Shown piece after piece: positions 106 through 17,090 of a stretch of 54,874 nucleotides of DNA (its first letter is position 1; each line of letters begins with the position of its first letter). The DNA is from Actinomycetota bacterium (GTDB lineage Bacteria; Actinomycetota; Aquicultoria; JACQXZ01), in assembly GCA_016208465.1 (NCBI GenBank), contig JACQXZ010000012.1, positions 3,141-58,014 of the forward strand, read 5' to 3'. Below the pieces are notes generated by a model. The model was not told the DNA's origin, did not search any database, and worked only from the letters and a program-made list of their open reading frames with translations. The position numbers and the translations under genes were made by a program.

Positions 106-867
106 TTATTCTATAAAAATTGACAAACATCCTACCAAAATTCCAAATAAAACTGATAAAATTATTTTGTTGTTTTCCCCTTTTGTAATTCCCTCAATCT
201 CATGAGCTTCAGGCAACATATCTGCTACGGCTACATAAAGAAAGGAACCAGCAGTAAAGCCTAACACCAATCCCAAATTTACAGATAGTCCATAAGCAAA
301 ACCATAATAAGTAATTAAAGCTCCCAACGGAGTCATTATAGCAAATAAACTCAGAAGCAAAACAATTATTTTCCTGGAATATTTCTTACACAAAAGAAGA
401 GTGCCAAGACAAAAACCGTCGGGAATTTTATGAGCAATAACAGCAATAGCTACTAAAATTCCTAATTTAAATGAGCTTGCTAATGCCCCGCCGAAAGCTA
501 ATCCATCAATTAAACTATGAATACTTATGCCAGCGAAAGAAAAAAAACCGATGGGTTCAAGACTTTTGCCGTGTTCAGGACAATTATGTTCAGTGGAAGG
601 ACAGAAATGAGTTTTAAAGACCTGCTCAATTACATAAAAGAAAGCAAAACCAACTATTGCCATTATATAAGCATTTTTGCTTTCTGAAACTGCCTCGGGA
701 AGTAAATCAATCAGCCCAATCGAAAGCATAAAACCAGATCCTAATCCCAGCCCAATTTTAAGCCGCAGGGACTTTCCTTCTCCAATCTTGAGGGCAAAAT
801 AACCCCCAATACCGCCCATTAAAAAAACAACAAGAGAAAAGATGAATAAAACAGATTGTTTTCCCAT
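106..867 (-). CDS. ZIP (ZupT/GufA) family metal transporter
   Basis: Multi-TM protein with HSLIDG and AHKIPDG motifs and a His/Cys loop (HFCPSTEHNCPEH). Confidence 0.85.
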   Translation of the reverse strand: MGKQSVLFIFSLVVFLMGGIGGYFALKIGEGKSLRLKIGLGLGSGFMLSIGLIDLLPEAVSESKNAYIMAIVGFAFFYVIEQVFKTHFCPSTEHNCPEHGKSLEPIGFFSFAGISIHSLIDGLAFGGALASSFKLGILVAIAVIAHKIPDGFCLGTLLLCKKYSRKIIVLLLSLFAIMTPLGALITYYGFAYGLSVNLGLVLGFTAGSFLYVAVADMLPEAHEIEGITKGENNKIILSVLFGILVGCLSIFIE

Positions 868-905
868 TTCCTAATCTCCCTCTATCTTCTGTGTTCTGTA
901 TTCTG

Positions 906-1583
906 CTAGGCAATCCAGACAAAAAGCAGCCCAATTATCACCATCAGAGTACCGCTGACTAAATTTATATACGAAGACCAGGTCTGAAGTCTCTCAAATT
1001 TACGAATCGCCCCCGCTGAAACACCAACAAGAAGTAAAGGAATTCCATGACCAAGCGTATAAACAAAAACCAAAGATGCCCCATAAACCAATTTACCTTT
1101 TGCAAATGTTAAAGCAAATATGCCAAGAAGACCCGGTAGACAGCAGGGACAAACAAGCAGCCCAAATACCAGACCCATAATAAAAGTTCCTGTGCCGCCT
1201 CTGTATTTTAGATACAATTTTCTAAAGTTATCAAGTCTTGAAGAGCTGGTTGGTAATCTTAACTTAATTATTTCCGCAAAATGCAATCCAAGCAAAATTA
1301 TTGCAATTCCAATAATATAGTAAAGACATACCCCCATCTGAACCTGATTTGCGGCAAGAAATCCTATTGAACCCATAGCGCTGTAAGAAATAGTGAGTCC
1401 AATTAAAAAAATAAATGCCAGAAAAAAACCTTTTTTTCGGTTGAGGTTTTCTTCAGTCCCCAGATAACTTAACAACATCACAGCCCTGGCGAAAGTGCAC
1501 GGTCCTAAACTAGTTAGAGCTCCCAGAGAAAATGCTGCCAGATAGGCATATAATGGATTTGATAAAATTGATATTTTAAACAT
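906..1583 (-). CDS. ccdA: CcdA/DsbD-like transmembrane thiol-disulfide transporter
   Basis: About 6 TM segments; LGPC in TM1 and VCPCC in TM4; YTLGHGIPLL. Confidence 0.78.
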   Translation of the reverse strand: MFKISILSNPLYAYLAAFSLGALTSLGPCTFARAVMLLSYLGTEENLNRKKGFFLAFIFLIGLTISYSAMGSIGFLAANQVQMGVCLYYIIGIAIILLGLHFAEIIKLRLPTSSSRLDNFRKLYLKYRGGTGTFIMGLVFGLLVCPCCLPGLLGIFALTFAKGKLVYGASLVFVYTLGHGIPLLLVGVSAGAIRKFERLQTWSSYINLVSGTLMVIIGLLFVWIA

Positions 1584-1604
1584 TTACTAAAACAAACCAT
1601 TCCC

Positions 1605-1949
1605 TTATAAATTTCTTGTCCACCAGACAAAAACAATTAAAAAAACAACAATTACAGATATAATTAACAGATTTATCAATCTACCCCCCATCCCCCCTTT
1701 GACAAAGGGGGGCGAGGGGGGATTATTTTCATGGATTTTTAATCCAGAATCTGAAATAAGTTTTCTTATATTATTTTCATCTATTACTTCTTCATCAAAA
1801 GAAACATTTAAAATAAATTCTTTATCATTGAAAGAAACTTTTTTAATTCCCGGTTTATTCAAAAGAACACTTTCCGCTAAATCTCTGGCACAATCAGCGC
1901 AGTGTACTTCGGGCAGATAAACAGCTAACTGCTTCAATTGATTACTCAT
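1605..1949 (-). CDS. Heavy-metal-associated (HMA) domain protein with C-terminal membrane anchor
   Basis: VHCADC motif near the N-terminus; hydrophobic C-terminal helix. Confidence 0.72.
   Translation of the reverse strand: MSNQLKQLAVYLPEVHCADCARDLAESVLLNKPGIKKVSFNDKEFILNVSFDEEVIDENNIRKLISDSGLKIHENNPPSPPFVKGGMGGRLINLLIISVIVVFLIVFVWWTRNL
1684..1722. repeat. GC-rich palindromic repeat inserted in frame in the HMA gene
   Basis: CCCCCCTTT-GAC-AAAGGGGGG hairpin with C/G-run flanks; encodes NPPSPPFVKGGMGG. Confidence 0.75.
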
Positions 1950-2506
1950 CTTGGTTCCCTTTTCTTAAGTTTATCCTCAATTTTTTTAATTCGTTCTTTT
2001 GCTTCAATTTCAGGAAACATTCTTTTAAGTTCTTTTAATTCACTAATTGCTTTTTCAAACCTTCCTGTTCTATCATAAACATTTACCAACATACGGTGTG
2101 ATAATAAATGTTTCTTTTCCAGCTTCAATGATTTTTTAAATAAGCCCTCAGCCAGATAGTATTTTTTCTGTTCGAATAAGATTAATCCAAGATAAAAATA
2201 ATTATCATGTTCTTTGGGGTCAAGTTTGATAGCTTTTTTATAAAGAGAAATTGCTTTATTTTTATCAGAAGATTGATATAAATAAGCGAGAAATGAATAA
2301 TAAGATGCATTGGTGGGATCAAGCAAAACGGCTTTTTTAAAAGCAATTATGCTTTCCTTCTTGTCGTTAAGATGGAGATATTGCTCTCCACGCCATGCAT
2401 TTAAATAAGCAATTATCGGCCTGAAAATTATAATAAAAGCGACAACTGACAAAACTAAAATTATCAAACGATCTCTTTTCGAAATCGCATAATTACTATA
2501 TTCCAT
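1946..2506 (-). CDS. Membrane-anchored TPR protein
   Basis: N-terminal TM; repeated TPR-type motifs (AVLLDP, AIKLDP, YFYLG). Confidence 0.8.
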   Translation of the reverse strand: MEYSNYAISKRDRLIILVLSVVAFIIIFRPIIAYLNAWRGEQYLHLNDKKESIIAFKKAVLLDPTNASYYSFLAYLYQSSDKNKAISLYKKAIKLDPKEHDNYFYLGLILFEQKKYYLAEGLFKKSLKLEKKHLLSHRMLVNVYDRTGRFEKAISELKELKRMFPEIEAKERIKKIEDKLKKREPR

Positions 2507-2551
2507 TTTTCTCCTGTTTTAAAAATACATTATGCTACTGCTAATTAATTA

Positions 2552-3016
2552 TTATTCTATTTCCCAGACAAAAACCCTCTCTGAAACATCAAAGACATTT
2601 TTGATAATAAGCTTGATATACTTTGTCTTCTTTTTGAATCTTGAAAAAGATAAAATACCAGATCTGTGGTGACCACCGGGAGGAGAACCCTGCCATTTTA
2701 GAGGAAAATATTCGTTCCCACTGTCATCTTCCAATATTGATATTTTGGTCAGATCAAAATCCAAAGAACCCTCATGAACATCCACTGCTATCTTAAATTT
2801 AACCGGAAAAGCAGAGTTAAAATCCTTCGGTGTTACTTCTATAGACACATCATTCTCGTTATTTATTTTTGGAGGCAAATCAATACTCTGATTTTTTGAT
2901 GCTGTCTTAATTTCTGATGCGTTCTCAACCTTTAATGCAAGACTAATAGATACAATAGAAATAACAATTAAAGAGAGAATAATTACGGCGTTCCGAATAA
3001 CTTTCATGTTGTTCAC
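2552..3016 (-). CDS. Exported/membrane-anchored hypothetical protein with GGHH motif (putative metal binding)
   Basis: N-terminal hydrophobic segment; DVHEGSLD and PPGGHHRSG motifs; next to a Cu ATPase. Confidence 0.6.
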   Translation of the reverse strand: MNNMKVIRNAVIILSLIVISIVSISLALKVENASEIKTASKNQSIDLPPKINNENDVSIEVTPKDFNSAFPVKFKIAVDVHEGSLDFDLTKISILEDDSGNEYFPLKWQGSPPGGHHRSGILSFSRFKKKTKYIKLIIKNVFDVSERVFVWEIE

Positions 3017-3029
3017 TACAACCCACTCC

Positions 3030-5291
3030 TTATAATTTAACTTTCTTTAACAAAAGAGCATTGGTAACAACAATTATGCTCGAAGCGGCCATTATTAAAG
3101 CTGCCCATTCGGGTTTGAGAACAATCCCAAAAGGAAACAACAAACCTGCCGCGATAGGGATAGCAGCAGCATTGTAAGCGGTTGCCCAAAATAGATTTTG
3201 TTTCATTTTGCTCATAGTCTTATTACTTAATCTGATAAGCTTAGCTATATCTCTCGGATCATTTTTTACCAGAACTATATCAGCCGATTCTACAGCAACA
3301 TCAGTTCCTGCACCAATCGCTATACCTACGTCGGCTTGGGTTAAAGCAGGGGCATCATTAACTCCATCTCCCACCATCGCCACTTTTCCCCCATTTTGTT
3401 GCAGCTCTTTTACCTTGCTTGATTTATCTCCCGGTAAAACTTCTGCAAAATAAGTATCAAGACCAAGCTCGTCTGCCACATATTTTGCCGTAAGTTTATT
3501 GTCGCCGGTCAACATAGCAACTTTTACACCTATATTTTTTAGAGCTTTTACGGTTTCGTATGATTCTTCCCTAATAATATCCGATAGCGCTATCAGACCT
3601 TTGACTTCCTTGTCTGTTGCCACATAAACAACCGTCTTCCCCTGAGAAGAAAGCTTTTCCAGTTGTCTCTTTATTTTCTCTGTATCAAGTTTTAAAAAAT
3701 CCATTAGCGCTTTATTCCCAACATATATTTTCCCTTCTTCTATGTTGGCGCTTGCTCCTTTTCCCGGAATTGCTTCAAACTTCTGGACATTCGACAAAGA
3801 GACATTATTTTCTTTAGCTTTTTTAACAATACCTTTGGCAATGACATGTTCTGAGTTGACTTCCATCGCGGCAGACTTTCTTAAAATCTCATCTTCTTTC
3901 CAATCATTCAAAGACACAAGGTCAGAGACTCCAAATTCTCCTTTTGTAAGAGTGCCTGTTTTATCAAAAACAATAAAATCAATATTCTTTGCTATTTCCA
4001 TTGCCACCATATCCTTGATAAGCATCCCGTTTTTTGCGGCTAGCGTTGTAGAAATTGATGTTACAGTTGGGATAGCTAATCCCAGCGCGTGAGGACAAGC
4101 AATTACAAAAACAGTTATCATAAGCGTTAAAGCAAAAACTATTCCCGCTCCAACGATTACTGCCCAATATATAAATGTCAAAACCCCTACAATTATGGCC
4201 GTAAGCGTAAGATAATGAGCCGCTTTATCTGCCAGTTTCTGAGTTTTTGGTTTAGATGCCTGAGCGTTTTTTACCAGTTCTATAATTTGAGCCAAAGCAG
4301 TGTCTTTGCCTGTTTTTTCAACTTTTATTTTTATTGAACCTGATTCATTTATGGTGCCGCCAATTACTTTATCGCTGATCTTTTTAGATACAGGTTTTGA
4401 TTCCCCGGTAACCATTGATTCATTAATGCTGGTTTCCCCTTCAACAACAATGCCGTCTATGGCAACTTTTTCACCGGGACGAATCAGAATAACATCACTT
4501 ACTTTCAAATCAGCAGTATCAACTTCAACAATACTGCCTTCTTTAACAAGATTTGCTTTGGGAGGAATAAGTTTAACTAACTCATTAAGCGCTCCTGAAG
4601 CTCCCATAACAGCACGCATTTCCATCCAATGGCCAAAAACAAGGAAAAGAACAAGTGTTGAGATTTCCCAATAAAAATCCATAGCCTGAAATAAAAAAGT
4701 AGCTCCGAGACTATATAAATAACCGGAACCAACCGCCAGACTTACCAGCACATTCATGTCTAATATTTTACTTCTAAGAGACCTGACAGCTCCCCTGTAA
4801 AAAGGAGATGCTCCATAAACAGCTATTAAAGAAGAAAAGATAACCAGTAACGCGACATTAAAACCAAAATCCGGAACCGTTAACCCTATCCATTCCTGGA
4901 TGGTTGGAGATAAAAAAAGAACCGGTATCGTAAAAACCAAGGAAATAATCGTCTTTGCTCTAAATTCCTTAACCATCATCGCGTGATGGTTTTTATGTTC
5001 TTCGTGTTTCATTTTCTTGTGTTTCACATGCTCTTTATGTTCCATTTCTTCGTGAGCATCTTTTTTGGCAACCGAGCAATCATAGCCGCATTTTTTCATC
5101 CACTCGATTATTTCTTTTTTAGAAGTCATCCCCTGATGAAAAGTAACTTTCATTGTGTTATCCATTGGGTTAATGTTTACTTCAATTATGTGAGGATTTT
5201 CTTTCTTTAACTTTTCTTCAAGATTACAATGACAGCCGGGCGACATATATTCTTCGATTAACAAATCAACGGTATCGATACTCTTTTCCAT
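3030..5291 (-). CDS. copB: P1B-3 type copper-translocating P-type ATPase
   Basis: TGES, CPH in TM, DKTGT, GDGVNDAP; His/Met-rich N-terminal region. Confidence 0.9.
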   Translation of the reverse strand: MEKSIDTVDLLIEEYMSPGCHCNLEEKLKKENPHIIEVNINPMDNTMKVTFHQGMTSKKEIIEWMKKCGYDCSVAKKDAHEEMEHKEHVKHKKMKHEEHKNHHAMMVKEFRAKTIISLVFTIPVLFLSPTIQEWIGLTVPDFGFNVALLVIFSSLIAVYGASPFYRGAVRSLRSKILDMNVLVSLAVGSGYLYSLGATFLFQAMDFYWEISTLVLFLVFGHWMEMRAVMGASGALNELVKLIPPKANLVKEGSIVEVDTADLKVSDVILIRPGEKVAIDGIVVEGETSINESMVTGESKPVSKKISDKVIGGTINESGSIKIKVEKTGKDTALAQIIELVKNAQASKPKTQKLADKAAHYLTLTAIIVGVLTFIYWAVIVGAGIVFALTLMITVFVIACPHALGLAIPTVTSISTTLAAKNGMLIKDMVAMEIAKNIDFIVFDKTGTLTKGEFGVSDLVSLNDWKEDEILRKSAAMEVNSEHVIAKGIVKKAKENNVSLSNVQKFEAIPGKGASANIEEGKIYVGNKALMDFLKLDTEKIKRQLEKLSSQGKTVVYVATDKEVKGLIALSDIIREESYETVKALKNIGVKVAMLTGDNKLTAKYVADELGLDTYFAEVLPGDKSSKVKELQQNGGKVAMVGDGVNDAPALTQADVGIAIGAGTDVAVESADIVLVKNDPRDIAKLIRLSNKTMSKMKQNLFWATAYNAAAIPIAAGLLFPFGIVLKPEWAALIMAASSIIVVTNALLLKKVKL

Positions 5292-5315
5292 CTTTATCTG
5301 CTTTTGTCCAACATT

Positions 5316-6104
5316 TTAGCCCAAAACCTTTCTGGGAAATTTTTCTGTTTCTGACCTTTCCTCTCCCGGTGTTTTTATAACCACTTCGATATTATCCGAT
5401 CTTATGTTTATAATATTATAAGAAGGCTTTGTGTATCCTCTAGTCCTCCAGGTGCTTACCGTTCCACTATTAATGATTAACATATTCGCGACAGGCCAGA
5501 TATAGGGAACGTGTTTATGGCCAGACAAGACTAAGTCTGTCCCCGCTTTGCGAAGCTCTTCTAATACGTCTCCTGCATCCCAAACAATATTTCTCTCTCT
5601 TCCTGTTCCGGGCGTACTTACCAGGTGGTGATGCAGGACAAAAACTTTAAAATCATTTTCACTTCCAAATTGATCTTTTATCCACTGGTAATGATCACGA
5701 CCAATTTCTCCATCATCCAAATCTGGCTTGTTGGAATCAACAGCAACAATTTTAACTTTTTCCTGAAGCACGCCACCGCAACAGACACAAAAATTAAAGG
5801 TTACCGTTTGATAGCGGGGGCCAATCAATTCCTCAAAGTGAACGAAGCCTACATTTCTACAGTCATGATTGCCGGCGATAACCACTATTTGAGGACATTG
5901 GATTTGGTCAATGTAATCCTTTGCCTCCTCAAATTGCTCGCGATAACCAAAAGCCGTCAGATCACCGGGAACCACTACTAAGTCTGCAACTCTCTCATTT
6001 ATCTCCTCCAAAGCTGTTTGCATAAGCTTTTTATCAAAGCGATCATCTCCGCAGTGAAAATCGGAAAGTTGGATGATGGTAAAAGAATCCTTTGTCTGAG
6101 CCAT
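5316..6104 (-). CDS. Calcineurin-like metallophosphoesterase (CpdA-like)
   Basis: SDFH, GDLT, GNHD, HHH, GHKH motifs. Confidence 0.85.
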   Translation of the reverse strand: MAQTKDSFTIIQLSDFHCGDDRFDKKLMQTALEEINERVADLVVVPGDLTAFGYREQFEEAKDYIDQIQCPQIVVIAGNHDCRNVGFVHFEELIGPRYQTVTFNFCVCCGGVLQEKVKIVAVDSNKPDLDDGEIGRDHYQWIKDQFGSENDFKVFVLHHHLVSTPGTGRERNIVWDAGDVLEELRKAGTDLVLSGHKHVPYIWPVANMLIINSGTVSTWRTRGYTKPSYNIINIRSDNIEVVIKTPGEERSETEKFPRKVLG

Positions 6105-6254
6105 AACGCAAAATCTCCCTTCTAGCCTTCTTTCGCTTCGCTATTTTTCGAAATGCTTTTGAGATATGCCTAACATATAAGGGCTGTTGAAAAATCCTTT
6201 TCCTAATAGACAAGGTTTACTAACCCCGCATTATGGCAGGATGGGAATGTATTG

Positions 6255-7142
6255 CTAAATTTTCTTATTGTTTTTGTTTTTTCTTGGCTTTGATCCTCTT
6301 GGCTTGGTTTTAACGCCCTGTCTGCTTGTCGATAAAAAATATCCGCTGAAAAAGACACTAACAATAGCTATTATGCCAAGAACTATTATTAAGGTATTAT
6401 TGCCTGTTCCACTGCCGGATGCAGCCGCCCCCGGCGCCGAAGTCTGTCCACCCCCGGTTTGATCTTTTTTCTTTTCTACCGAAGGATTGGGATCGCTTTT
6501 TGTATAAGAAACCTTTATGCCAATTGGCTGATCCTTCTTAACAGATTTAAAACCGTAAAGATTAAGTTTAAAGCCAGCCGAATCGGTCGAACTTTCAGTT
6601 GAAGGAGGCTCTAGTTTAAAATTTGTTGACTTAAGCGGTTCCTGAACTTCTACTTTTAAATCATCAATCTCATAAACAGGCTTATAAATAAAATCAAAAG
6701 ACTTATTAGTGTCACCCTTAAGCGGATTATAATAATATTCAAAAAACAGTGTTGGGCGGCTTTGAACAACATAACTCAACTCATCATAATCTCCTTTGTT
6801 TACTCTTTGGGTCGGCTTACAAGTATGTCCGCCTGTTTCGGTAACTTCACAAGCCATTCCAATAAACGCATCTTTAGGAATAAGAAATTTGATTCTAAAA
6901 GGAAATTCATACGGCTGTTTAAGAGTTATGTTGTAAATAACTAAAACTCGTGGATCGTCATACTCAGGCCAGACCGAAAGATCTAACTTGCCTATTTTAA
7001 GGGCTGGCGAAGGCACATCATCTTCAGCGGCCAAAGCTACTCCGCTAAAACTAACAAAAAGCATTGACAGAGAAATGATAAAACTAATTAGTTTAAATAA
7101 TTTCTCCCTTCTAATCGAAACAAAATTTGTCATCTTATTCAC
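6255..7142 (-). CDS. Exported protein with signal peptide and C-terminal membrane anchor
   Basis: Signal peptide ending ALA; WPEYDDP motif; MAC...HTC Cys pair; Gly/Ser linker, TM and basic tail. Confidence 0.6.
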   Translation of the reverse strand: MNKMTNFVSIRREKLFKLISFIISLSMLFVSFSGVALAAEDDVPSPALKIGKLDLSVWPEYDDPRVLVIYNITLKQPYEFPFRIKFLIPKDAFIGMACEVTETGGHTCKPTQRVNKGDYDELSYVVQSRPTLFFEYYYNPLKGDTNKSFDFIYKPVYEIDDLKVEVQEPLKSTNFKLEPPSTESSTDSAGFKLNLYGFKSVKKDQPIGIKVSYTKSDPNPSVEKKKDQTGGGQTSAPGAAASGSGTGNNTLIIVLGIIAIVSVFFSGYFLSTSRQGVKTKPRGSKPRKNKNNKKI

Positions 7143-8191
7143 TCCATTCCTTTTTTCGACCCAAACAAAAATCCCAAGCTTTCGTATTTATTCATCGCAT
7201 ACTGATATACTGGTTTTAGTCTGGTGTATTTAAATAATTGAGTTACCCAAAAATCAGATATACTGCTAAAGGTTGACTGTTTTCTCTCTAAAACATCAAA
7301 ATATCTCCTGTGAGAAACAACAACATTTTTATATTTGCTTAAGCCCTCCTCTAAAGTTAATTTTTTATCAATAATCTCCTGAATAATGTCACCACAGACT
7401 TCGCCAAAATAAATTGCTGTTCTTATTCCTTCCCCTGTAAGCGGCAGACAATGACCGGCAGAATCTCCTGCTAAAAATATCTTGCCTACCACCGGCTCCC
7501 TGAATTCATGAGGGAAAAACCCGCCGTAAACCGAATTAACTTCTAATCCAAATTCATCTAAAAATTTGGCTAATTTTTTCTTTAGGGATGGATTTCTACC
7601 ATAACTTCCTATTCCAAATCTTGCCATTTTACCAACGGGAAAAACCCACGCATATCCATCTTTTATTGTCTTGGAATTATTATAAAAATAAAAATGCATT
7701 TCATCGGTTTTAAAATCAAGAACTGTCTCAATCCCAAAGCTTAATTTGGTTCTGTCAACAAAATTTTTTTCTAATGAACTCGCCAAAACAGCCCGCCATC
7801 CTGTTGCATCAACAATGCAGTCAGACTGAAATTCACCTTTGTCAGTAATAACTTTACCTTCGTTAAAAGTTTTCACTTTTGCTTTAACAAATTCGACCTG
7901 AATCTTCTTAAAAAATGATTCACAAAATTTCTTGTAATCAAAAGTGCAATATAAATTGTTTAAATCAAAATCGATCTCATCCAAAACTGTATGGACCTTT
8001 GCCTTTTCAAAAACCTGAAAAATTACTTCTTCACCGGCTATTCGCTTGACGAGACTGTAGGGAGCAGCGCAGGCAGACGTTTCATTTAATCCCACATCCT
8101 GCTTATCAATCAACAAAATATTCCCTTTAACTCTGCTTGCAACAGCCAAACCCGCAAAGCTGGCTCCTGCAATTATCACATCGTATTTCAT
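7139..8191 (-). CDS. FAD-dependent oxidoreductase, geranylgeranyl-reductase/FixC-like
   Basis: DVIIAGASFAG, DATG, GYAWVFP, AGDSAG...PLTGEGI; start moved to ATG 8191 because the longer ORF begins in a repeat tract. Confidence 0.8.
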   Translation of the reverse strand: MKYDVIIAGASFAGLAVASRVKGNILLIDKQDVGLNETSACAAPYSLVKRIAGEEVIFQVFEKAKVHTVLDEIDFDLNNLYCTFDYKKFCESFFKKIQVEFVKAKVKTFNEGKVITDKGEFQSDCIVDATGWRAVLASSLEKNFVDRTKLSFGIETVLDFKTDEMHFYFYNNSKTIKDGYAWVFPVGKMARFGIGSYGRNPSLKKKLAKFLDEFGLEVNSVYGGFFPHEFREPVVGKIFLAGDSAGHCLPLTGEGIRTAIYFGEVCGDIIQEIIDKKLTLEEGLSKYKNVVVSHRRYFDVLERKQSTFSSISDFWVTQLFKYTRLKPVYQYAMNKYESLGFLFGSKKGME

Positions 8192-8265
8192 ATACCTCTC
8201 GGTCCCCAACCTCTTATCTTCCCAATTTCCTATCTTCCGTTTCTTCCACCTCATATCTCGCGCTT

Positions 8266-9971: not shown

Positions 9972-10126
9972 TTTAACTTATCCTTTCTCTCGAAAGATTT
10001 AACCTGAGACGCCACTTTATCTTTTGTGTCACAGCAACTGGGTGGTTTATTGCCAAATTCCTTTTTGTTCGCTTCGGCTAATCTCTTTAAAAAATCATTC
10101 CACCATGCCTTGATTCCTTTAAACAT
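9968..10126 (-). CDS. Small 52-aa LDCC-motif-like putative metal-binding protein (missing from ORF track)
   Basis: Manual translation MFKGIKAWWNDFLKRLAEANKKEFGNKPPSCCDTKDKVASQVKSFERKDKLN; GAAGG upstream; stop overlaps lgt start (TTGA). Confidence 0.65.
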   Translation of the reverse strand: MFKGIKAWWNDFLKRLAEANKKEFGNKPPSCCDTKDKVASQVKSFERKDKLN

Positions 10127-10147: not shown

Positions 10148-10432
10148 TTAAACATCCCTTTTCTCTTTCTTCATCTCTATCTCTATCTCTTTCTCTTTCT
10201 TCTCTGTCATCTCTTCCTTGCATTCATTGTGATTGCTATGATCGTGCGACTTGTGACCAAACATCATAAAAACCATCATTAGCGGACAAAGTAAGAAAAA
10301 CAACAAGTTTCCGCCGCTTCTGAAAATTGGGAATCTTGCCAAAAACGTAATCAAAAAAAGCGGAACAAGACAACAGAGAGCCATCATCGCTAAATGATTG
10401 TGTCCTTTTCCTTTATTGTTCTGAGAATTCAC
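10148..10432 (-). CDS. DUF2933-like small Cys/His/Met-rich membrane protein
   Basis: HLAMMALCCLVP, LLCPLMMVFMM, HKSHDHSNH. Confidence 0.7.
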   Translation of the reverse strand: MNSQNNKGKGHNHLAMMALCCLVPLFLITFLARFPIFRSGGNLLFFLLCPLMMVFMMFGHKSHDHSNHNECKEEMTEKKEKEIEIEMKKEKRDV

Positions 10433-10454
10433 AATATTTCAACCCCTTTGTTTA

Positions 10455-11630
10455 TTAATCCAGATCCCTGGCATTTCTCTTAAGATGATGTTTTGGTCTC
10501 AAAGAAACTGGTTTGATTTTCTTGGCAGTTTTAATATCCTCCAGCTTTCTTATCTTGCGTCTTTTTCTTTCACCTCTTTTTAATTTGACTTCATCTTCTA
10601 ATTCTCTTAATTCTCTCTCTAATCTTTTACGGAACTCTGCTTCTTTATTTTTCTCGGCTGCAATTTCTTTCTCTTCTTTCTTAAAATCTGTTTTAAGCTC
10701 ATCAACTTCATCTTCCAGTTCCATCAACTCTTCTTCGAGCTTCCTGCGAAACTCTGCAGTTCTAGCACTTTCAGAAATAATCTCTCCTTCTTCATTTTTA
10801 ACTTTTGAATCGAGCTTTTCAACTTCGCCCTCTAACTTCTCCCATTCTTCCTTTCTGTCTTCTGTCTTCTGTCTTCTGACTTCTGACTCCTTCTCTATTC
10901 CTATTTCTTCTTTCACTGGCGGCTCTGATTTTATCTTTGGCTCAACTCTAAAATCAGCGCCGGTGCTGTCTGAAAAAATCATTCCATCTTTTATCTGAAC
11001 AATCCGTCCTACGTTCTCAAGTGACTCCGGGTTATGGGTAACCATTATAATTGTTTGTCCTTCTTTGTGAAGTTCATGAAACAAACGAAGTACTTCAGCG
11101 CCGGTTTTTGTATCCAGACTGCCAACCGGCTCATCAGCCAGAATAATAGGAGGATTATTAACAAGCGCTCTTGCAATTGCTACCCTGCTTTGCTCGCCGC
11201 CTGAAAGCTCAGAGGGAAGTTTGTTCAGCTTGCTTGAAAGGCCCATCTTTTCTAAAACCTGAATTGCTCTTTCTTCGTGATTCTTTAAATCAGTTACCAC
11301 CAATGGCAGCATTACGTTTTCAAGAGCTGTTAAGTAAGGAACAAGCTGAAGCTGTTGAAATACGAATCCTAAATATTCCCGTCTGAAATCCGCCCGTCTT
11401 TCCTGAGTCAACTTATAAACATCAATTCCATCAACTTCAAGAATTCCATCACTTGGAGGATTCATTGCGCCAAGGATTGAAAGCAATGTGCTCTTGCCAG
11501 ATCCAGAAGGACCAATTATTGCTACAAACTCTCCATGGTTAATTTCAAAACTTACTTTTCTTAGAGCATTTACCCGTCCTTCGCCCTCGCCGTAATGTTT
11601 TGAAATCTCGTTTACACTAATTAAGATCAT
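10455..11630 (-). CDS. ABC transporter ATP-binding protein (LolD/MacB-like) with long charged C-terminal extension
   Basis: [20 protein letters not shown]; about 165 extra charged residues. Confidence 0.9.
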
Positions 11631-11639
11631 TTTGACCCC

Positions 11640-12800
11640 CTATAAGTTCTTCAGCGATTCCGCGGGATCAAGATTCGCGGCTCGCCTTGCTGGAAGAGAA
11701 CTTGAAATCAATCCGATAATTACTGACAATACCACTGAAACTACCAGCAGATAGACATTAAAACTGGCTGCTACTTTGATAGATTTTACAAAAAACGGAA
11801 GCAGTTTTGCCGCGGTAAAACCTGTAAAATAACCAACCCATCCGCCAATAAGACTCAAAATGAATGCCTCAATTAAAATTATTTTTGCAACTTTTGTCTG
11901 GCGATATCCAATCGCTCTAAAAATCCCGATTTCTCTTGTTCTGTCATTTACAGATGATGTCATTGTGGTAAAAACAATCAGCCCGCTGATAAAAATAATC
12001 ACAAAAGTAACCGCTAATCCGAACTTGCCTAATTGCCCCATTGCATCCTCTTTGTATTTAACAGCCTGCTTAACCGATGAAACCTCGGCGTTTGGAAGAG
12101 TTTTATTTACTTCTTCAACAATAGAATCAATGTCTTCCGTGCTTTTCGCCGAGATCTCAATTAAATTAATTTCACTCTTGCGTTTTAGGAAATTCTGAAA
12201 TAGAGAAAGACTTCCGAAAATCAAATCATCATCCTGACTGCCAGTTGTTTTTAAAATTCCTGCTATTTCAAATTTCTTCTCGTGAATCGAAATGCTGTCA
12301 CCGACTTTTAAACCTAATTTTTTGGAGGCATCAGAACCCAATAATAACTGATTAGTATTTACAACCGGCGGTTTACCTTTGATCTGCCACCATTTTTTTA
12401 TAACTAATTCCTGACGTATGTCTATCCCAACCAAAAGCACCTGTTTCTGCTTTACCGTCACCGCGTGAAGTATTTTAGGAGAAATCACTTGTATAAGGTC
12501 TGAGTTCTTGATTGATTTTATCTTTTTTACATCGGAATCACTTAAGGTTCTCACTTTATATGACTGAACACCTGAAATTGTAATTCCGCCATAAGAAAGT
12601 GAAAGATCAGACGATTTTGGATAAACCATTATATTAAAACCATAAGCGTTCAATTCTTCACTAATACTGCTTTGAAATGCCAGCATAATTGAAAGAACAG
12701 AAACAAAAGCTGTAATCCCAACAGCTAATCCTGCTACTACCAGAATCATTTTGCCTTTCCTTCTGTTTATATTTTTAAACGCAATTGTTCTAAGATACAT
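11640..12800 (-). CDS. ABC transporter permease, MacB/FtsX family
   Basis: TM1, large extracytoplasmic domain, RTREIGIFRAIG, PARRAANLDP. Confidence 0.9.
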   Translation of the reverse strand: MYLRTIAFKNINRRKGKMILVVAGLAVGITAFVSVLSIMLAFQSSISEELNAYGFNIMVYPKSSDLSLSYGGITISGVQSYKVRTLSDSDVKKIKSIKNSDLIQVISPKILHAVTVKQKQVLLVGIDIRQELVIKKWWQIKGKPPVVNTNQLLLGSDASKKLGLKVGDSISIHEKKFEIAGILKTTGSQDDDLIFGSLSLFQNFLKRKSEINLIEISAKSTEDIDSIVEEVNKTLPNAEVSSVKQAVKYKEDAMGQLGKFGLAVTFVIIFISGLIVFTTMTSSVNDRTREIGIFRAIGYRQTKVAKIILIEAFILSLIGGWVGYFTGFTAAKLLPFFVKSIKVAASFNVYLLVVSVVLSVIIGLISSSLPARRAANLDPAESLKNL

Positions 12801-12812
12801 TTTCTTGGGCTC

Positions 12813-13970
12813 CTAAACAGCTTCAAGAGCAGTTACCGGATCAAGTTTTGCCGCGGCGATTGCCGGATATAGACTGGAAACAAACGAAAGCAACACTGCT
12901 CCGCCGATTGCAATAATTGCCAGTTGGGCATCAAGTTCAATCGGGACATCAATATTGGCGGAACCTGACGCAATAAATTTCGCTATTCCAAAACCAGCCA
13001 GATAACCAATTGTTCCTGAGACAAAACTCATAAAAACTGATTCAGATAAAATTATCTGGAGTATGTGAGCTCTTCGGTAACCCATAGCTCTGAATATCCC
13101 GATTTCACGCCTGCGTTCCCTGACAGAACTAAGCATATTGGTAAAAACAATCAGCGCCGCTACTACCATCATAATAACCGAAAGAACCACTGCAAAAGTT
13201 ATAAACTGACCAACCAGATTATTACGCGATTTGGCTGCCTGCAAAAGAGCTGATACTTTCGCTCCGGGAATTTTTTCTGAAGTCTGGGCAACAATCTGCT
13301 CAATCGGACAGGTACTGCAAAATGCGGCTACTTCAATTAAACTTAACTGACCAGATTTTTTAAATATGTTCTGAGCCCGTTGTAGATCCATATAAATTAA
13401 ATCATCTTCCTGCGTTCCTACTCTATTGATGATTCCGGAAACTTTATAAGACAAACCTTCCAGTTTAACAGTATCATTAACCTTTAAGCCTAACTTATTA
13501 GAAGCGCTAGCTCCTAATAAAATATCCTGCGAAGTTACAGGCGCTTTTCCTTTTATTTCCCACCATTTCTTAAGACGAAGTTCTTCACCAAAATTAACCC
13601 CGACAATCATAACGCGTTTCCCTTTGATATCCTGAACTCCTAATAATTTTGGCGCCACTATATTTATATTTTCTTTATTCTTAATTGTTCTTATTTTCGC
13701 GGCATCTTCCTCTGTTAAAGTATTCGCTTCATACTGAAGTCCGCCCAGAGTAACCCCGCCGTAAGAAAGCGATAGATTTTTTGATTTCGGAACGATAACC
13801 ATATTGGCGCCAAACGCATCTATTTTATTCGCCAAATCAAGCTGCATTGCCCAAGCAACAAGATATAAAGCAACAACCGTAGTTACGCCAAGCGTTAAAG
13901 CCATCATCAGCAAAGCAACCCTTGGAAGATGTCTGGTTACATTTCTGGTTGTTATTCTTGAGAGTTTCAT
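12813..13970 (-). CDS. ABC transporter permease, MacB/FtsX family, with extracytoplasmic CxxC
   Basis: RRREIGIFRAMG; AAFCSTCPI; start set at ATG 13970 because the GTG at 14000 lies inside a heptamer repeat. Confidence 0.88.
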   Translation of the reverse strand: MKLSRITTRNVTRHLPRVALLMMALTLGVTTVVALYLVAWAMQLDLANKIDAFGANMVIVPKSKNLSLSYGGVTLGGLQYEANTLTEEDAAKIRTIKNKENINIVAPKLLGVQDIKGKRVMIVGVNFGEELRLKKWWEIKGKAPVTSQDILLGASASNKLGLKVNDTVKLEGLSYKVSGIINRVGTQEDDLIYMDLQRAQNIFKKSGQLSLIEVAAFCSTCPIEQIVAQTSEKIPGAKVSALLQAAKSRNNLVGQFITFAVVLSVIMMVVAALIVFTNMLSSVRERRREIGIFRAMGYRRAHILQIILSESVFMSFVSGTIGYLAGFGIAKFIASGSANIDVPIELDAQLAIIAIGGAVLLSFVSSLYPAIAAAKLDPVTALEAV

Positions 13971-14018
13971 TTTAACTCCGGACCCCGTCTTACGTTTCAC
14001 GTTTAACGTCTTACGTCT

Positions 14019-14594
14019 CTATATTTCACTAAACTGGTTATTTCTGTATGATAACTCTTTAACTAGTTCCCCATCTTTATAAATATTACACTGAATATGA
14101 CAACCAAAGTCTTGTGATTTAACAGTAACATTCCTGTCACCATATTTAGTTGCGTAAAAGTCAAGAGCGGCTGCTTCTATTTTTTGAAGCTCCGCAGGAT
14201 TAGTGGCGGCTGCTGATCCGCCTCCACAGCAACCGCCGCCAGAACCACCACTTGAACCACTAGAATTGTTATTTGAAGTTGTAGCAAACTGAACGGGTGT
14301 GCCATTATAACCAGAAGAAAAATTGTCGTTTGCTAAAGACGCTTCATTTTTAGACTGAAAAATAAAAATATTCAAAACTAAAAACAAAACACCTACTGTA
14401 ATTGTTGTTGCCACAATTGTACCTAATTGGCTCTTAAAAACTTTCTTGTAATTTTTGTTTTTATTTTTGCTTTCATAACCAACTTCTGCTAGTTCTCTTT
14501 TTATACGTTTTATTTTCTTCTTAGCCAATTCCAATTCAGACAATAGTTTTGTTGATTTTTCATAACCTTCACTTTCATAATCTTTGTCATTCAT
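14019..14594 (-). CDS. Membrane-anchored Cys-rich hypothetical protein
   Basis: Single TM, then GGGCCGGG and DFGCHIQC motifs. Confidence 0.65.
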   Translation of the reverse strand: MNDKDYESEGYEKSTKLLSELELAKKKIKRIKRELAEVGYESKNKNKNYKKVFKSQLGTIVATTITVGVLFLVLNIFIFQSKNEASLANDNFSSGYNGTPVQFATTSNNNSSGSSGGSGGGCCGGGSAAATNPAELQKIEAAALDFYATKYGDRNVTVKSQDFGCHIQCNIYKDGELVKELSYRNNQFSEI

Positions 14595-14673
14595 ATTTTG
14601 TTCCCTCCTGTATTCTTCGGTATTGTCAAAATCTTTCTAATTGATGCGGAATCCAGTTCTTCTCTTTATTTTC

Positions 14674-14700
14674 CTGGATTCCCGCTTTCGCGGGAATGAC
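14674..14700. repeat. REP-like palindrome GTCATTCCCGCGAAAGCGGGAATCCAG
   Basis: 8-bp stem ATTCCCGC/GCGGGAAT; half copy at 14641-14656; abuts a TCTGTTG heptamer array (14709-14750). Confidence 0.75.
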
Positions 14701-14749
14701 ATTTGTTTTCTGTCTTCTGTTGTCTGTTGTCTGTTGTCTGTTGTCTGTC

Positions 14750-15531
14750 TTATATTCTTGGCTTCCACGATGCAATTCCAGAAGCTTTAATATATATCTT
14801 TCCATCTTTGATTTCGTGTTGGAATTCGTCCGGTGGATATTTCGGACACCCGCCTGAAATACCTTCGAGTGTCTCAAGATTCCACTTAGTTCCACAAGCC
14901 TTACAGGTTAAGGTCTGATCCGCGGAATCTATGTAGAACAATGTCGATTTACAAGGTTCACATAAACTAACACCAGTAACTAATTTACCGGATGGAGCAA
15001 TATAAGCAACCAACGGAAATGGTCGGGCCGCTCCAAAACCAGAAGGAATAGTTACTTTACTGTATTCAAAACCGACAAGTTTATTTTTTTTCACATCATC
15101 AAGAGAAACAACCACACTGTCTCCTGTTTCTTCTGCCTTAACAGGGATCATCTCAATCTTGCCTGTTGTAGAATAGTCTATTGGATCAGAGACCACCGAG
15201 CGTTCAACTTTTATGGCCGGACCTCTCCGACTGGAAAAGAATATTCCTCCAACTACGCCTAAGATAAGCACAAGTACTCCGACTGTTTTAAATATCCCTT
15301 TTGATCCGCTTGATTTGCCGCTGACAAATCTTTCTCTCTTATCTTCAAAATCATTATCTCTATCCCGATATACGGGTCTATCCCTATATGCAGATCTAAT
15401 CTGTCCTCTGTCTTCTGACTTCTGACTTCTGACTTTTCTTCCTAATCTTTCTCTCTCTGGCTCTCATCGTCTCTTAAATATTCTCTATTTGCTTTAGATC
15501 TTGGTAGATCTTCATACCTATCATCTTTCAT
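14750..15531 (-). CDS. DUF2318/FtrD-like membrane-anchored Fe-S protein, apparently frameshifted near 15450
   Basis: CEPC, CKAC, GGCPKYP motifs; strong SD (AGGAGG) precedes ATG 15531, whose frame stops after 29 codons while the main frame is open from about 15460. Confidence 0.7.
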
Positions 15532-15616
15532 TTCAGCAAATCCTCCTTTTATCATTCACGCTTAAATTGATTTTCTTCTAAAGTTTATAAATTCCTGTAT
15601 AAATAATCTTATCTAT

Positions 15617-15633
15617 TACTACCTTCTGTAGTA
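15617..15633. promoter_or_regulatory. BlaI-type operator upstream of the metal/ABC operon
   Basis: Perfect TACTAC-CTTCT-GTAGTA; same motif twice in the repressor promoter. Confidence 0.8.
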
Positions 15634-15659
15634 TTAGAGGGCAAAAAAATTCCTCTTCT

Positions 15660-16577
15660 TTAAAAATGACCAAGATAGTTACTATCGTTGCAATTAAAAC
15701 GATTACCCACTTTAACGCACTGACTTGACGATCTCTCGCTAACAGCCAATGCGGTTGCTGTAAATATGATTACCATTATAAGTGTTGCCAAAACTGCTAT
15801 AACAAAACCTTTCAAAGGTTTTCGAACTTCCTTTTTATCTATTAAGCGGGTAATTCTTTCATGTATTGAGGCTCTGTCGGAAAATGCCGGAGCATAACTT
15901 AAAATCATAGGTGTCTCAACAAAATGCATTTTGGCAACTTTAACCAATGCTCTTGCTAAAACCAATGGATCCTTAGTGACACTAATCGCATAATCATCTG
16001 CCGCTTTCTCTTTTTCCATACAAAATTCTTCAAACAGATAATGGCTGAGCGGCAGGAAAAACATAAAGTCTCTTACAAAAATTCCAAGATTAAGCAAAAT
16101 ATTATCCCGGTGCTTAATGTGAGCGATCTCGTGAATAACAAGAGCCTTAAATTCAGAATCTTCCAGTTTATTTATAATCGAGGAAGCAATATAAATTTGT
16201 GGTTTAAAAATTCCCCAGACAAACGCCAGTGGTATATTGGTATCCAGAATGTTTACTTTATATCCATCAATTAATATACTTTCCCACTGAGTTGCTTTTA
16301 TATGTCTGGCAGTAAGATAAACAATGAAAAGATTTCTGCCTACAGCCCATAAAAACGCGCTAAGTCCTACTAACAGTAAAATAGCAAGAATTGGATTTGA
16401 CATTAAAATCTTTCCAATAGTGTTCTGGGCGTGAGTGCAAAATTCGCGAACTTGGTCAAGGCTAACATATGTACTCATTCCGGCTATTGTTGTAAATAAT
16501 AACCCAACGAGTCCAAGCGCTATCAATAAAGAAACGGATAATCTGGAATTGTGATAAGATTTAAAATTAACCTTCAA
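15660..16577 (-). CDS. M56 family (BlaR1-like) membrane metallopeptidase without penicillin-binding domain
   Basis: HEIAH zincin motif, EKAADD, ERITRL; start overlaps the repressor stop. Confidence 0.88.
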   Translation of the reverse strand: MKVNFKSYHNSRLSVSLLIALGLVGLLFTTIAGMSTYVSLDQVREFCTHAQNTIGKILMSNPILAILLLVGLSAFLWAVGRNLFIVYLTARHIKATQWESILIDGYKVNILDTNIPLAFVWGIFKPQIYIASSIINKLEDSEFKALVIHEIAHIKHRDNILLNLGIFVRDFMFFLPLSHYLFEEFCMEKEKAADDYAISVTKDPLVLARALVKVAKMHFVETPMILSYAPAFSDRASIHERITRLIDKKEVRKPLKGFVIAVLATLIMVIIFTATALAVSERSSSQCVKVGNRFNCNDSNYLGHF

Positions 16578-17029
16578 TTTAAACTATCTCCCTCTGGAGA
16601 ATCTTCGGATTCTTTTAAAATCCGGCGCTCAAGCTCTTCCAGCTTCTTTTTGTCATCGCTTGAAACAGCCTCAACAAAATGAGAAAGAGCAGAAGCGCTT
16701 ATTCCAGTAAACAAACTCTTAAGCACTTCTTCAGCTGTTTTTTTCTGAAAATCCGCTTTGCTAATCGACGGGGAATAAATAAAGGCGTTGCAATTCTTCT
16801 CTCTTACAAGCAACCCCTTTTCAGCAAGACGGCCCATCACGGTCATAACAGTTGTGTAAGCCACTTCGCGACTTTTGTTAATCTGAACAAAAACATCGCG
16901 AACCGAAACTGTGCCACCACACCAAACGCAATCCATAATATCAGCTTCTAGTTCGCCCAAGACTTTTCTTGTCCCGTTTTCAGCAGGATAAAATTTATTG
17001 ATTTTTAGCTTATTTACATATTTCTTCAT
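16574..17029 (-). CDS. blaI: BlaI/MecI family transcriptional repressor
   Basis: LGELEADIM, AYTTVMTVMGRLAEKG winged helix; no C-terminal CxC. Confidence 0.9.
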   Translation of the reverse strand: MKKYVNKLKINKFYPAENGTRKVLGELEADIMDCVWCGGTVSVRDVFVQINKSREVAYTTVMTVMGRLAEKGLLVREKNCNAFIYSPSISKADFQKKTAEEVLKSLFTGISASALSHFVEAVSSDDKKKLEELERRILKESEDSPEGDSLN

Positions 17030-17048
17030 AATTTAAACCTTCTTTAGC

Positions 17049-17090
17049 TACTACTAAACGTAGTATACTACAATATGTCGTAAAAATCAA
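17049..17090 (-). promoter_or_regulatory. Sigma70 promoter overlapped by two tandem BlaI-type operators
   Basis: TTGATT-17-TATACT on minus strand; TACTAC-TAAAC-GTAGTA (17049-17065) and TACTAC-AATAT-GTCGTA (17066-17082). Confidence 0.8.

Follow-up and report, generated by a model that had tools for sequence, protein, structure and literature searches.

A predicted BlaI/M56 proteolytic switch ahead of a copper- and cytochrome c-linked envelope gene cluster in an Aquicultoria genome

In most regulatory pairs of the BlaI/BlaR type a beta-lactam sensor is missing, and what they respond to and which genes they govern is unexplained; of some 15,000 BlaIR systems, about 6% only possess a beta-lactam-binding domain (PMC13492132). 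The closest worked precedent for a copper-triggered pair of the sensorless kind is PetR/PetP of Synechocystis sp. PCC 6803, where degradation of the repressor needs the protease as well as copper and where the regulon, comprising petE, petJ, slr0601 and slr0602, constitutes a cytochrome c6/plastocyanin switch (bioRxiv 10.1101/2020.07.31.226407). Here, a BlaI/M56 repressor-protease pair was analysed that heads a run of 20 co-oriented genes (minus strand, 17029 to 106) in a stretch of 54,874 nucleotides, hereafter called the window. The window corresponds to positions 3141-58014 of contig C90 of a 1.75-Mb metagenome-assembled genome (MAG) of 105 contigs, which belongs to the class Aquicultoria of the Actinomycetota. 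It is proposed, with a probability of roughly 55%, that the pair forms a proteolytic switch of the PetR/PetP type ahead of a long envelope operon. Contigs of this genome are denoted by C numbers and related loci by L numbers.

The pair of the window resembles PetR/PetP in its composition, as both systems combine a repressor of the BlaI/CopY family without the CopY cysteine motif and an overlapping gene for an M48/M56 protease without a beta-lactam sensor. Moreover, in both a palindrome with a 5-nt spacer is located between the -35 and -10 elements, reading GAC-N5-GTC in the cyanobacterium and TAC(T/G)AC-N5-GT(A/C)GTA here. The phylum differs, and so do the regulons: four genes are controlled in the cyanobacterium, whereas a Fet-like ATP-binding cassette (ABC) module, a copper ATPase, CcdA and genes linked to cytochrome c maturation (Ccm) are found here. 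The likeness to PetP is drawn from the published description of that protein, and a dependence on copper is presumed here by analogy. CopY/TcrY regulators of the Lactobacillales belong to the same winged-helix repressor family and regulate copper P1B ATPases; CopY, however, senses copper itself via a C-terminal CxCx4CxC site and has no protease partner (PMC11672702). CenIR of C. difficile and Rv1846c/Rv1845c of M. tuberculosis likewise join a repressor to a metalloprotease without transpeptidase sensor, with the difference that CenIR has a regulon of cell-envelope hydrolase genes and a long disordered sensor tail (PMC13492132). Among open-access papers and preprints, no report was found of a BlaI/M56 pair controlling DUF2318, Fet-like or ccm genes. 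A preliminary description of the window had pointed out that BlaI/BlaR1 pairs usually control beta-lactam responses, that copper loci usually employ CopY, CsoR or CueR, and that this M56 partner is without a penicillin-binding domain; in view of the 6% figure a sensorless partner is not unusual, and with PetR/PetP a copper-responsive BlaI/M56 pair is already established.

The gene for the repressor (151 aa; 16574..17029, on the minus strand like all cluster genes below) encodes a winged-helix Penicillinase_R domain (PF03965, E 6.8e-28, 97.8 bits, cut-off 22.6). The protein aligns to S. aureus BlaI (1sd4), to MecI (1okr) and to 2g9w (E 7e-12), which we take to be BlaI of M. tuberculosis. As already noted in the preliminary description, the CopY-type CxC is lacking: no cysteine is present past residue 89, so that neither a C-terminal CxCx4CxC nor a CxC site exists, and the score against the CopY_TcrY model TIGR02698 (57 bits) stays below the cut-off of 121.95. 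A C-terminal CopY-type cysteine site was found in none of the 22 aligned homologues. The residues H117-F118 are aligned on N101-F102 of S. aureus BlaI, presumably the site of cleavage by BlaR1.

Two abutting 17-bp palindromes at 17049..17082 (TACTAC-N5-GTAGTA and TACGAC-N5-GTAGTA on the gene strand) are predicted to be operators, and they cover the spacer and the -10 element of a sigma-70-like promoter of blaI-M56 (TTGATT-17-TATACT, 17062..17090, minus strand; a consensus match only, at 9/12 positions). A third predicted operator (TACTAC-N5-GTAGTA, 15617..15633) is located 27 nt past the M56 stop codon and 86 nt before the ATG at 15531, a position that is kept in related loci. The search for the palindrome TACNAC-N5-GTNGTA gave these three matches in the window against 0.03 expected, a number that was reached in 0 of 100 shuffles, and no further match appeared when one mismatch was allowed. 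The three boxes are the only exact copies in the 1.75-Mb genome, and the other intergenic gaps of the cluster contain no box-like site, the best candidate having 4 mismatches. The classical cop/bla box TACAnnTGTA was rejected as operator, as its one match in the window (26170) lies inside a restriction gene and 31 of 100 shuffles give that many.

A census of the boxes was made in 115 de-duplicated related loci (1.14 Mb). It gave 58 boxes against 0.2 expected, 55 of which are located not more than 650 nt upstream of one of six gene homologues and three elsewhere. The targets are blaI (21 boxes), DUF2318 (18), the gene for a 295-aa exported protein described below (13), and with one box each p52, TPR186 and an RseC-like gene. 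The refined motif reads TACTAY-N5-RTAGTA, and the layout with boxes at blaI and at DUF2318 recurs in related loci. L032, which comes from the same taxonomic order as the window's genome, contains three boxes, ahead of blaI, DUF2318 and the 295-aa gene, and L035 contains four, ahead of blaI, p52, TPR186-HMA-CcdA and the 295-aa gene. The separate boxes of L035 place the distal half in the same regulon there. That each unit keeps its own box where the genes are split speaks most strongly for counting the window's distal genes as members of the regulon. Due to the occurrence of boxes at these genes in the window and in the 115 loci, predicted repressor control at the two promoters and membership of a conserved regulon are well supported at the level of sequence. 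Only two promoter regions are boxed in the window, and control of all 18 downstream genes is presumed. With respect to the preliminary description, in which BlaI/M56 was proposed to control the whole cluster, predicted operators at blaI and DUF2318 agree with the proposal, which for the unboxed distal genes of the window stays a presumption.

The M56 membrane metalloprotease (305 aa; 15660..16577) is encoded by a gene that overlaps blaI by 4 nt and is translationally coupled to it. It matches PF05569 with 56.8 bits (cut-off 31), and the region of its HEIAH motif (residues 148-152) aligns to the protease domain of S. aureus BlaR1 (8exp). From the sequence and the alignment three membrane helices are predicted, the HEIAH domain lying between the second and the third. 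Only 27 residues follow the last helix, so that no sensor domain is present, in agreement with the penicillin-binding domain reported missing earlier; the blaR1_generic model of BlaR1 with its transpeptidase-like beta-lactam sensor is matched with 34.5 bits against a cut-off of 400. Loop 34-60 and the tail of 27 residues are predicted to face outwards, as judged from the positive-inside rule and from the analogous proteins BlaR1 and PetP. The loop carries C47 and H49, the tail C286, C295 and H304. Two cysteines occur in the outer loop of 20 of 22 M56 homologues and three or more in the outer tail of 19 of 22, usually as C-x6-8-C followed by a CC pair, and neither Met nor His is conserved in the outer loop of these 22 proteins.

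The gene order was taken from the open reading frame (ORF) listing of the window. Searches with Pfam and NCBIfam confirmed the families named in the preliminary description, and its account of a co-oriented metal and thiol gene cluster holds; the quoted Cys/His motifs (GGGCCGGG, GCH, CSTCP, PSCCD, CPH and GGHH) are all present in the translations. Nineteen tightly spaced genes had been counted there. The count is in fact 20, and the spacing is confirmed (-4 to 45 nt) apart from three larger gaps: 128 nt between M56 and DUF2318 (to the ATG at 15531), 155 nt between DUF2318 and the gene GCH191, and 150 nt between the 295-aa gene and the phosphoesterase gene. Among the 18 genes downstream of M56, stop-start overlaps were found at the Lgt gene, the 295-aa gene and the HMA gene. 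A scan detected no terminator-like site in any intergenic gap on the cluster strand; it called a promoter-like site at 6258-6230, near the 150-nt gap before the phosphoesterase gene. An Rfam scan of the window gave four tRNAs and no riboswitch.

According to the proposed mechanism, the repressor would bind the 17-bp boxes at its own promoter and ahead of DUF2318, and M56 would sense an extracytoplasmic thiol-reactive signal, most likely copper, by means of its Cys-bearing outer loop and tail. Cleavage of the repressor by M56 at the conserved H117-F118 would then open both promoters. The genes released would be, in this order, the Fet-like module (DUF2318, a Cys-His protein and a MacB-type ABC transporter), small Cys proteins with a second Lgt and, next, the Ccm-linked 295-aa ectoprotein, a CopB-type ATPase, a thiol-reductant unit of tetratricopeptide repeat (TPR), HMA and CcdA proteins, and a ZIP importer. 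Their role would be to keep extracytoplasmic thiol-dependent cofactor assembly, chiefly cytochrome c maturation, working during copper export, and cytoplasmic copper would be sensed separately by CsoR acting on the neighbouring CopA. We infer the protease step from homology; copper is presumed to be the signal in the first place and thiol oxidation in the second, and transcription is presumed to reach the ZIP gene.

The part of the cluster that is best conserved is the proximal one. An M56 homologue is present in 27 of 41 genomes searched, the window's own included, and the 20 best loci were fetched from class-level relatives, several of these stretches ending at contig ends. BlaI lies upstream on the same strand in 17 of the 20 and DUF2318 directly downstream in 10, and a P1B ATPase is found within the fetched stretch in 9. 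A DUF2318 profile scan with one genome per species yielded 35 loci, with enough upstream sequence in 28 and enough downstream sequence in 31. These loci belong to Actinomycetota or to MAGs that bear the labels Bacillota, Syntrophaceae, Bacteroidota and Anaerolineae. BlaI and M56 are directly upstream in 14 of the 35 loci, BlaI alone in one more, and FtsX permeases are downstream in 23. A copper-type ATPase occurs in 15/35, ccm genes in 9/35, either of them in 22/35 and a CsoR homologue in 8/35. These gene orders define a conserved core, made up of BlaI, M56, DUF2318 and a MacB-type ABC transporter, that is shared by Actinomycetota and some Bacillota MAGs. The genes for which a neighbourhood comparison had been called for in the preliminary description (DUF2318, CxxC permease, GCH protein, lgt, BlaI and M56) are co-conserved; the flavoprotein and ZIP genes are not, and the acidic TPR and DUF2933 genes are almost without counterparts.

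The DUF2318/FtrD-like protein (14750..15555; PF10080, 67.9 bits) is membrane-anchored and has five cysteines that are invariant across 11 aligned sequences; its label as an Fe-S protein is the Pfam name only. The N-terminus carries an Arg/Glu-rich head. The reading frame seems to break near 15444-15466, and the membrane helix lies upstream of the first canonical start; near the 5' end a 29-codon ORF with a strong ribosome site is present in another frame. A 332-aa homologue with 88% identity reads intact through the region of the break, and a search for longer fused forms returned one protein, which is weak evidence. The apparent break sits at a high-copy repeat, public contigs end near 15456-15464, and comparison of contigs from the groundwater runs in which this stretch occurs gave no indel call at that point. 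High-copy repeats at about 14591-14772 and 15319-15500 flank the gene, reach depths in the thousands in metagenome contigs and are of the types GTCATTCCCGCGAAAGCGGGAATCC and CAGAAGT/GACAACA-type low-complexity runs. An 89-aa ORF at 14626-14895 was rejected as a gene, as it is only a reading of the repeat.

Next in order is a 191-aa anchored GCH protein (14019..14594) without Pfam family, which is composed of a membrane helix, a Gly/Cys-rich linker (GGGCCGGG) and a small domain of a helix and four strands. This C-terminal domain is predicted with a confidence (predicted local distance difference test, pLDDT) above 90 and contains C165-H166, which is invariant in 14 aligned sequences. Foldseek found no PDB match for the model, and the ESM Atlas contained nothing for the protein. 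The ABC transporter proper comprises MacB/FtsX-type permease A (12813..14000; Pfam/NCBIfam and alignment) with a CxxCP motif in its outer domain (CSTCP; C228 and C231 invariant in 11 aligned sequences), permease B of the same type (11640..12800; same evidence) and a MacB/LolD-like ATPase (10455..11630; Pfam/NCBIfam). The ATPase has a Lys/Glu-rich C-terminal extension of ~160 aa, and homologues match residues 1 to about 235 only. A complex prediction for both permeases with the DUF2318 ectodomain gave a score of 0.00, which was obtained without controls and counts neither way. Sequence profiles of the PDB for the DUF2318, 295-aa and GCH families returned only zinc-ribbon or Gly-linker noise. 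Charged low-complexity extensions, as seen here on DUF2318 and the ABC ATPase, occur also on the acidic TPR protein, and they are absent or variable in homologues.

The 295-aa protein (6255..7142) is exported and C-terminally anchored. It matched no family, and its ectodomain was modelled with confidence as two beta-sandwiches (pLDDT 77). The residues C98, H106 and C108 (C-x7-H-x-C) are invariant in 10 aligned sequences. Foldseek matches of the model were rejected as a guide to function, being of the generic beta-sandwich kind (oligosaccharyltransferase subunit and N-domains of M1 aminopeptidases, template modelling score about 0.4), and the ESM Atlas listed unnamed clusters only. The family is sizeable, with at least 665 representatives at E up to 1e-30 in a 50%-identity library. 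Its outer domain is not covered by Pfam, the only names given to members are 'zinc ribbon domain-containing' and 'hypothetical', and a cytoplasmic zinc ribbon is often present. The genes of the family usually stand immediately ahead of ccmE, ccmF or ccmH. A metagenome scan with the family gave 133 relatives, from which 80 loci were kept. Downstream sequence of 1.5 kb or more is available for 47 loci, and in 25 of these CcmE, CcmF or CcmH is encoded within 3 kb downstream of the 295-aa gene. A box lies within 450 nt upstream of the 295-aa gene in 11 of 63 metagenome loci; both tallies, like those of the 35 DUF2318 loci, include near-duplicate contigs that were dropped from the box census. Fusions to cytochrome c domains occur in 5 of 108 proteins of the family (P0095 was checked). 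On this evidence the 295-aa family is likely to be a player in cytochrome c maturation.

These linkages also favour a different emphasis, namely that the regulon serves the maturation of cytochrome c and of envelope thiols, that the cysteines of M56 sense thiol oxidation, haem or the load of apocytochrome rather than copper, and that the copper ATPase has an accessory part. The ccm genes immediately adjoin BlaI-M56-DUF2318 in L055, L060, L062 and L158, and they adjoin DUF2318 alone in L047, L048, L057, L061, L064 and L084. Boxes precede operons that run from the 295-aa gene into ccm genes, for example in L032 (BlaI, M56, DUF2318, FtsX, ABC, [box], 295-aa, u168, CcmE-F-H, GGHH, CcdA, ABC ATPase, CcmB-C, 54-aa ORF, p52), in L084 ([box], [box], 295-aa, 238-aa, CcmF, CcmH, DUF2318, FtsX, FtsX, ABC, GGHH-like, 261-aa, Lgt) and in L158 (Lgt, 295-aa, [box], 295-aa, u168, CcmE-F-H, ABC, CcmB-C, [box], BlaI, M56, [box], DUF2318). 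The outer cysteines of most M56 homologues are even in number, six. In the window's own genome ccmE, F, A, B and C are located on contig C3 beside a gene for a 1044-aa multihaem cytochrome; as neither CcdA nor CcmH is encoded at that cluster, the CcdA and TPR proteins of the window could serve the C3 system. Against this emphasis, the window cluster contains no core ccm gene (ccmE, ccmF, ccmH or ccmABC) and only the accessory-like 295-aa, CcdA and TPR genes. BlaI-M56 heads plain CopZ-CopA operons without ccm genes in L033, L034 and L038, and copper-type ATPases are more frequent than ccm genes beside DUF2318 (15 against 9 of the 35 loci). A regulon centred on cytochrome maturation, with copper as an accessory matter, is considered the less probable alternative. 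The copper-signal and the cytochrome/thiol readings are compatible and not exclusive: copper is reported to target the assembly of c-type cytochromes (PMC4600104; bioRxiv 10.64898/2026.10.17.759849), which provides a reason for one regulon to hold copper genes together with Ccm-linked ones. The support for metalloprotein maturation, which had been offered in the preliminary description as one possible role, is strengthened by the linkage to cytochrome c maturation genes.

The designation u168 refers to a conserved protein of ~168 aa without Pfam family that is encoded beside ccm genes in L032, L055, L057, L060, L061, L062, L080, L084, L086, L090, L096, L104, L114, L120, L123 and L158. Its gene is mostly found between the 295-aa gene and ccmE or ccmF, and after ccmC in L060; a weak homologue is present on C51 of the window's genome.

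The remaining genes of the cluster follow the ABC ATPase gene. The first encodes a DUF2933-like small membrane protein with CC and His-rich motifs (10148..10432; PF11666, 25.5 bits), and the second p52, a 52-aa protein recognised by sequence with a PSCCD motif (9968..10126), the SCCD of which is kept in homologues of L032 (after ccmD) and of L035 (behind its own box). The prolipoprotein diacylglyceryl transferase Lgt (9204..9971; 237.8 bits) is an extra copy, as another Lgt, 39% identical, is encoded on contig C9 (23978-24637); in 4 of 45 metagenome loci an Lgt gene immediately precedes a member of the 295-aa family. Family searches identified an acidic TPR protein with one membrane helix, outer TPR repeats and an Asp/Glu-rich head of 105 aa (8266..9171). 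A geranylgeranyl-reductase-like flavoprotein (7139..8254; TIGR02032, 96.7 bits, below cut-off) has no relative in the metagenome scan. Beyond the 295-aa gene, a metallophosphoesterase (5316..6104; family search) adjoins the copper-type P1B ATPase (3030..5291; TIGR01511, 604 bits, cut-off 397). The same neighbourhood exists in Aquicultor-type loci, where homologues of 56-61% identity are encoded directly after the ATPase. The ATPase contains the sequence ACPHALG, and its N-terminus is rich in His around residues 80-105; a CPH metal-binding helix with a His-rich N-terminus presumably marks the P1B-3 (CopB-type) subclass. It is followed by a 154-aa anchored GGHH protein with conserved HHR(S/T)G (2552..3016; weak DUF5643 match), homologues of which occur in the vicinity of 295-aa family genes in 6 of 80 loci.

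The last unit consists of the membrane-anchored TPR186 (1946..2506; PF23914, CcmH/CycH TPR, 34.4 bits, below the cut-off of 42), a tail-anchored HMA domain protein with CxxC (1605..1949; PF00403), a CcdA/DsbD-type membrane thiol-disulfide transporter (906..1583; PF02683, 84.6 bits) and a ZIP-family metal importer (106..867; PF02535, 122 bits). ScsABCD and thiol reductant systems of the DsbD/CcdA type are reportedly linked to copper tolerance, and in the window cluster, too, a CcdA/DsbD-type membrane protein is encoded among copper genes; the cluster differs from these systems in that it lacks a thioredoxin-fold partner and has another regulator. Judged by their sequence relatives, the flavoprotein, ZIP, acidic TPR and DUF2933 genes look like lineage-specific passengers. 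As a side observation, the ZIP gene is immediately followed, on its own strand, by a gene for a small YHS/TRASH-domain protein (C90:2941-3165, reaching into window positions 1 to 25); it is partly N-masked and may be the 21st gene of the run. Beyond it a winged-helix protein and a 2Fe-2S/ASKHA-type corrinoid-activation-like gene are encoded.

An association with copper is seen in L033, L034 and L038, where BlaI-M56 heads CcdA, a DsbD_2-cupredoxin protein, CopZ and CopA. The cluster ATPase in relatives is closer to the window's other ATPase, which is of the CPC type. A CsoR-type palindrome, ATACCCTTATGGGGTAT, is present at 22627-22643, upstream of the gene for a YHS-domain CopA exporter (20232-22556), and its core TACCC-N5-GGGTA has one further copy in the genome only, on C32. 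The only CsoR homologue of the genome is encoded by a lone gene on C76 (6725-6988) with no copper gene beside it. Cytoplasmic copper control in this genome thus looks separate, with CsoR predicted to act on the neighbouring CopA; this exporter gene, just upstream of the cluster, carries a CsoR-type box instead of a BlaI-type box. In gut Firmicutes, the CsoR copper meta-regulon has been described as including DUF2318 and HMA-DsbD_2-DUF2318 proteins (PMC4938975). As a further observation, the Aquicultor-type loci L025-L031, L063, L066, L068, L071, L073, L075 and L079 contain a CsoR-like box (TACCCCCTACCGGTA) 10-40 nt upstream of a CcdA gene that diverges from blaI, and in most of them the genes for the ABC ATPase and the copper ATPase are separated by a CsoR homologue on the opposite strand.

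Several observations weigh against a copper-triggered switch over the whole cluster. The candidate copper ligands of PetP are two outer-loop methionines (bioRxiv 10.1101/2020.07.31.226407), whereas a Cys-rich loop and tail are found here; the M56 of the window is moreover a reduced variant with one loop cysteine and two tail cysteines, where most relatives have two and four, and outer segments rich in cysteine would suit a redox sensor no less than a metal sensor. The promoter scan made no call at the second box, no box precedes the distal genes, and the two 150-nt gaps could hold unregulated promoters. Homologues of the flavoprotein and of ZIP were found in none of the related loci, and the acidic TPR protein has one weak match there (L068, 31%) and the DUF2933-like protein two (L088, L094). 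The copper ATPase of L035 has its own CsoR gene, and in five Aquicultor-type loci of the relatives' set a divergent CsoR homologue is located between the ABC genes and the ATPase; with CsoR beside the ATPase, copper export in these relatives may lie outside the BlaI regulon. Finally, a search of public runs for the stretch listed no RNA run; the stretch was found in four DNA runs only, all from one groundwater study.

Part of these observations would be explained if the cluster were a mosaic, in which the repressor controls only itself and the proximal Fet-like module (DUF2318 through the ABC ATPase), Lgt and everything beyond it as far as ZIP being separate units on the same strand. The boxes at only two promoter regions of the window agree with such an arrangement, as do the gaps of 150-155 nt at 14595-14749 and 6105-6254, the promoter-like site at 6258-6230, the four genes with few or no counterparts in related loci, and the CsoR gene beside the ATPase in relatives. 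It is opposed by the continuity of the run, in which eighteen same-strand genes follow with gaps mostly under 45 nt, three stop-start overlaps and no terminator-like site in the intergenic gaps of the strand. The boxes of L035 (at p52, TPR186-HMA-CcdA and the 295-aa gene) and of L032 (at the 295-aa gene) show moreover that a repressor of the same type is to be expected even where the units are split. The mosaic arrangement is considered clearly less probable than a PetR/PetP-type switch ahead of a single long operon.

A function in iron uptake has to be considered due to the likeness of the DUF2318-ABC module to the Campylobacter jejuni fetMP-fetABCDEF cluster, in which a DUF2318 protein with five cysteines including two CxxC stands ahead of an ABC ATPase and its two FtsX permeases (PMC10783030), the permeases coming first. 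Each of the FetABCD genes is needed for growth at low iron, the underlying biochemistry being unexplained (PMC10783030), and fet clusters are listed for 33 species (PMC6083913). The cluster could then be an accessory that, like FetABCD, serves an importer of the FTR1 or ZIP type at low iron, and a ZIP importer does close the cluster. There are, however, clear differences. FetA is reported to have eight membrane helices and a YHS domain, whereas the DUF2318 protein of the window has one helix and no YHS domain; FetM, FetP and the thioredoxins FetE/FetF are lacking in the window cluster, where CcdA is present instead; and Fur and iron exert the control in Campylobacter in contrast to the BlaI/M56 pair here. 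No FTR1, P19 or thioredoxin gene occurs in the cluster, and no Fur-type control was seen, though Fur boxes were not searched for. The neighbours that recur across lineages are copper ATPases, CsoR, CopZ and ccm genes. Additionally, a second DUF2318 of the same genome forms a fusion with an FTR1 iron permease (431 aa), behind which an FtsX gene lies at the contig end (C80:9073-10848, L003); this separate locus is a better Fet counterpart than the module of the window. An iron-uptake role is therefore rated as unlikely. A classical response to beta-lactams or cell-wall stress, which is suggested by the family names only, can practically be dismissed, as M56 has no transpeptidase-like domain (34.5 versus 400 bits) and no beta-lactamase or penicillin-binding protein gene is part of the cluster.

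Overall, the interpretation given in the preliminary description, a proteolysis-gated envelope system for metal delivery or metalloprotein maturation, is partly supported. If the PetR/PetP-type switch is accepted, protease-gated copper logic, so far demonstrated only in cyanobacteria, would seem to extend to Actinomycetota. What is new is a coherent regulon for a known type of switch, in which a FetABCD-type module is tied to copper ATPases and Ccm genes; as a side result, the unnamed 295-aa family is flagged as Ccm-linked. For the sensorless BlaI/BlaR-type systems mentioned at the outset, the case offers a predicted operator and a regulon whose conservation is visible directly in genome sequences, together with outer cysteines as candidate sensor residues and a physiological theme of copper, thiols and cytochrome c assembly. 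On a more speculative level, the Cys-sensor BlaI/M56 pair might be a dedicated regulator of extracytoplasmic cofactor assembly in monoderms with System I Ccm, coupling ccm genes, the Fet-like DUF2318/MacB-type ABC module and copper export as a 'thiol-metal proofreading' regulon, with the 295-aa protein as a missing Ccm accessory factor. This generalisation is put forward tentatively and with more doubt than the switch itself; if true, it would give a first functional context for FetABCD, whose role in the iron uptake of Campylobacter is unexplained.

The surroundings of the cluster within the window are island-like. They include a VapBC pair, a further PIN protein, a type I restriction system, an IS-type (insertion sequence) DDE transposase and the four tRNA genes (17304-17868, 22728-23189, 23531-29247, 29398-31137 and 31799-32765). 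In the restriction system, a 1313-aa protein that joins Methylase_S specificity and HsdR domains adjoins HsdM.

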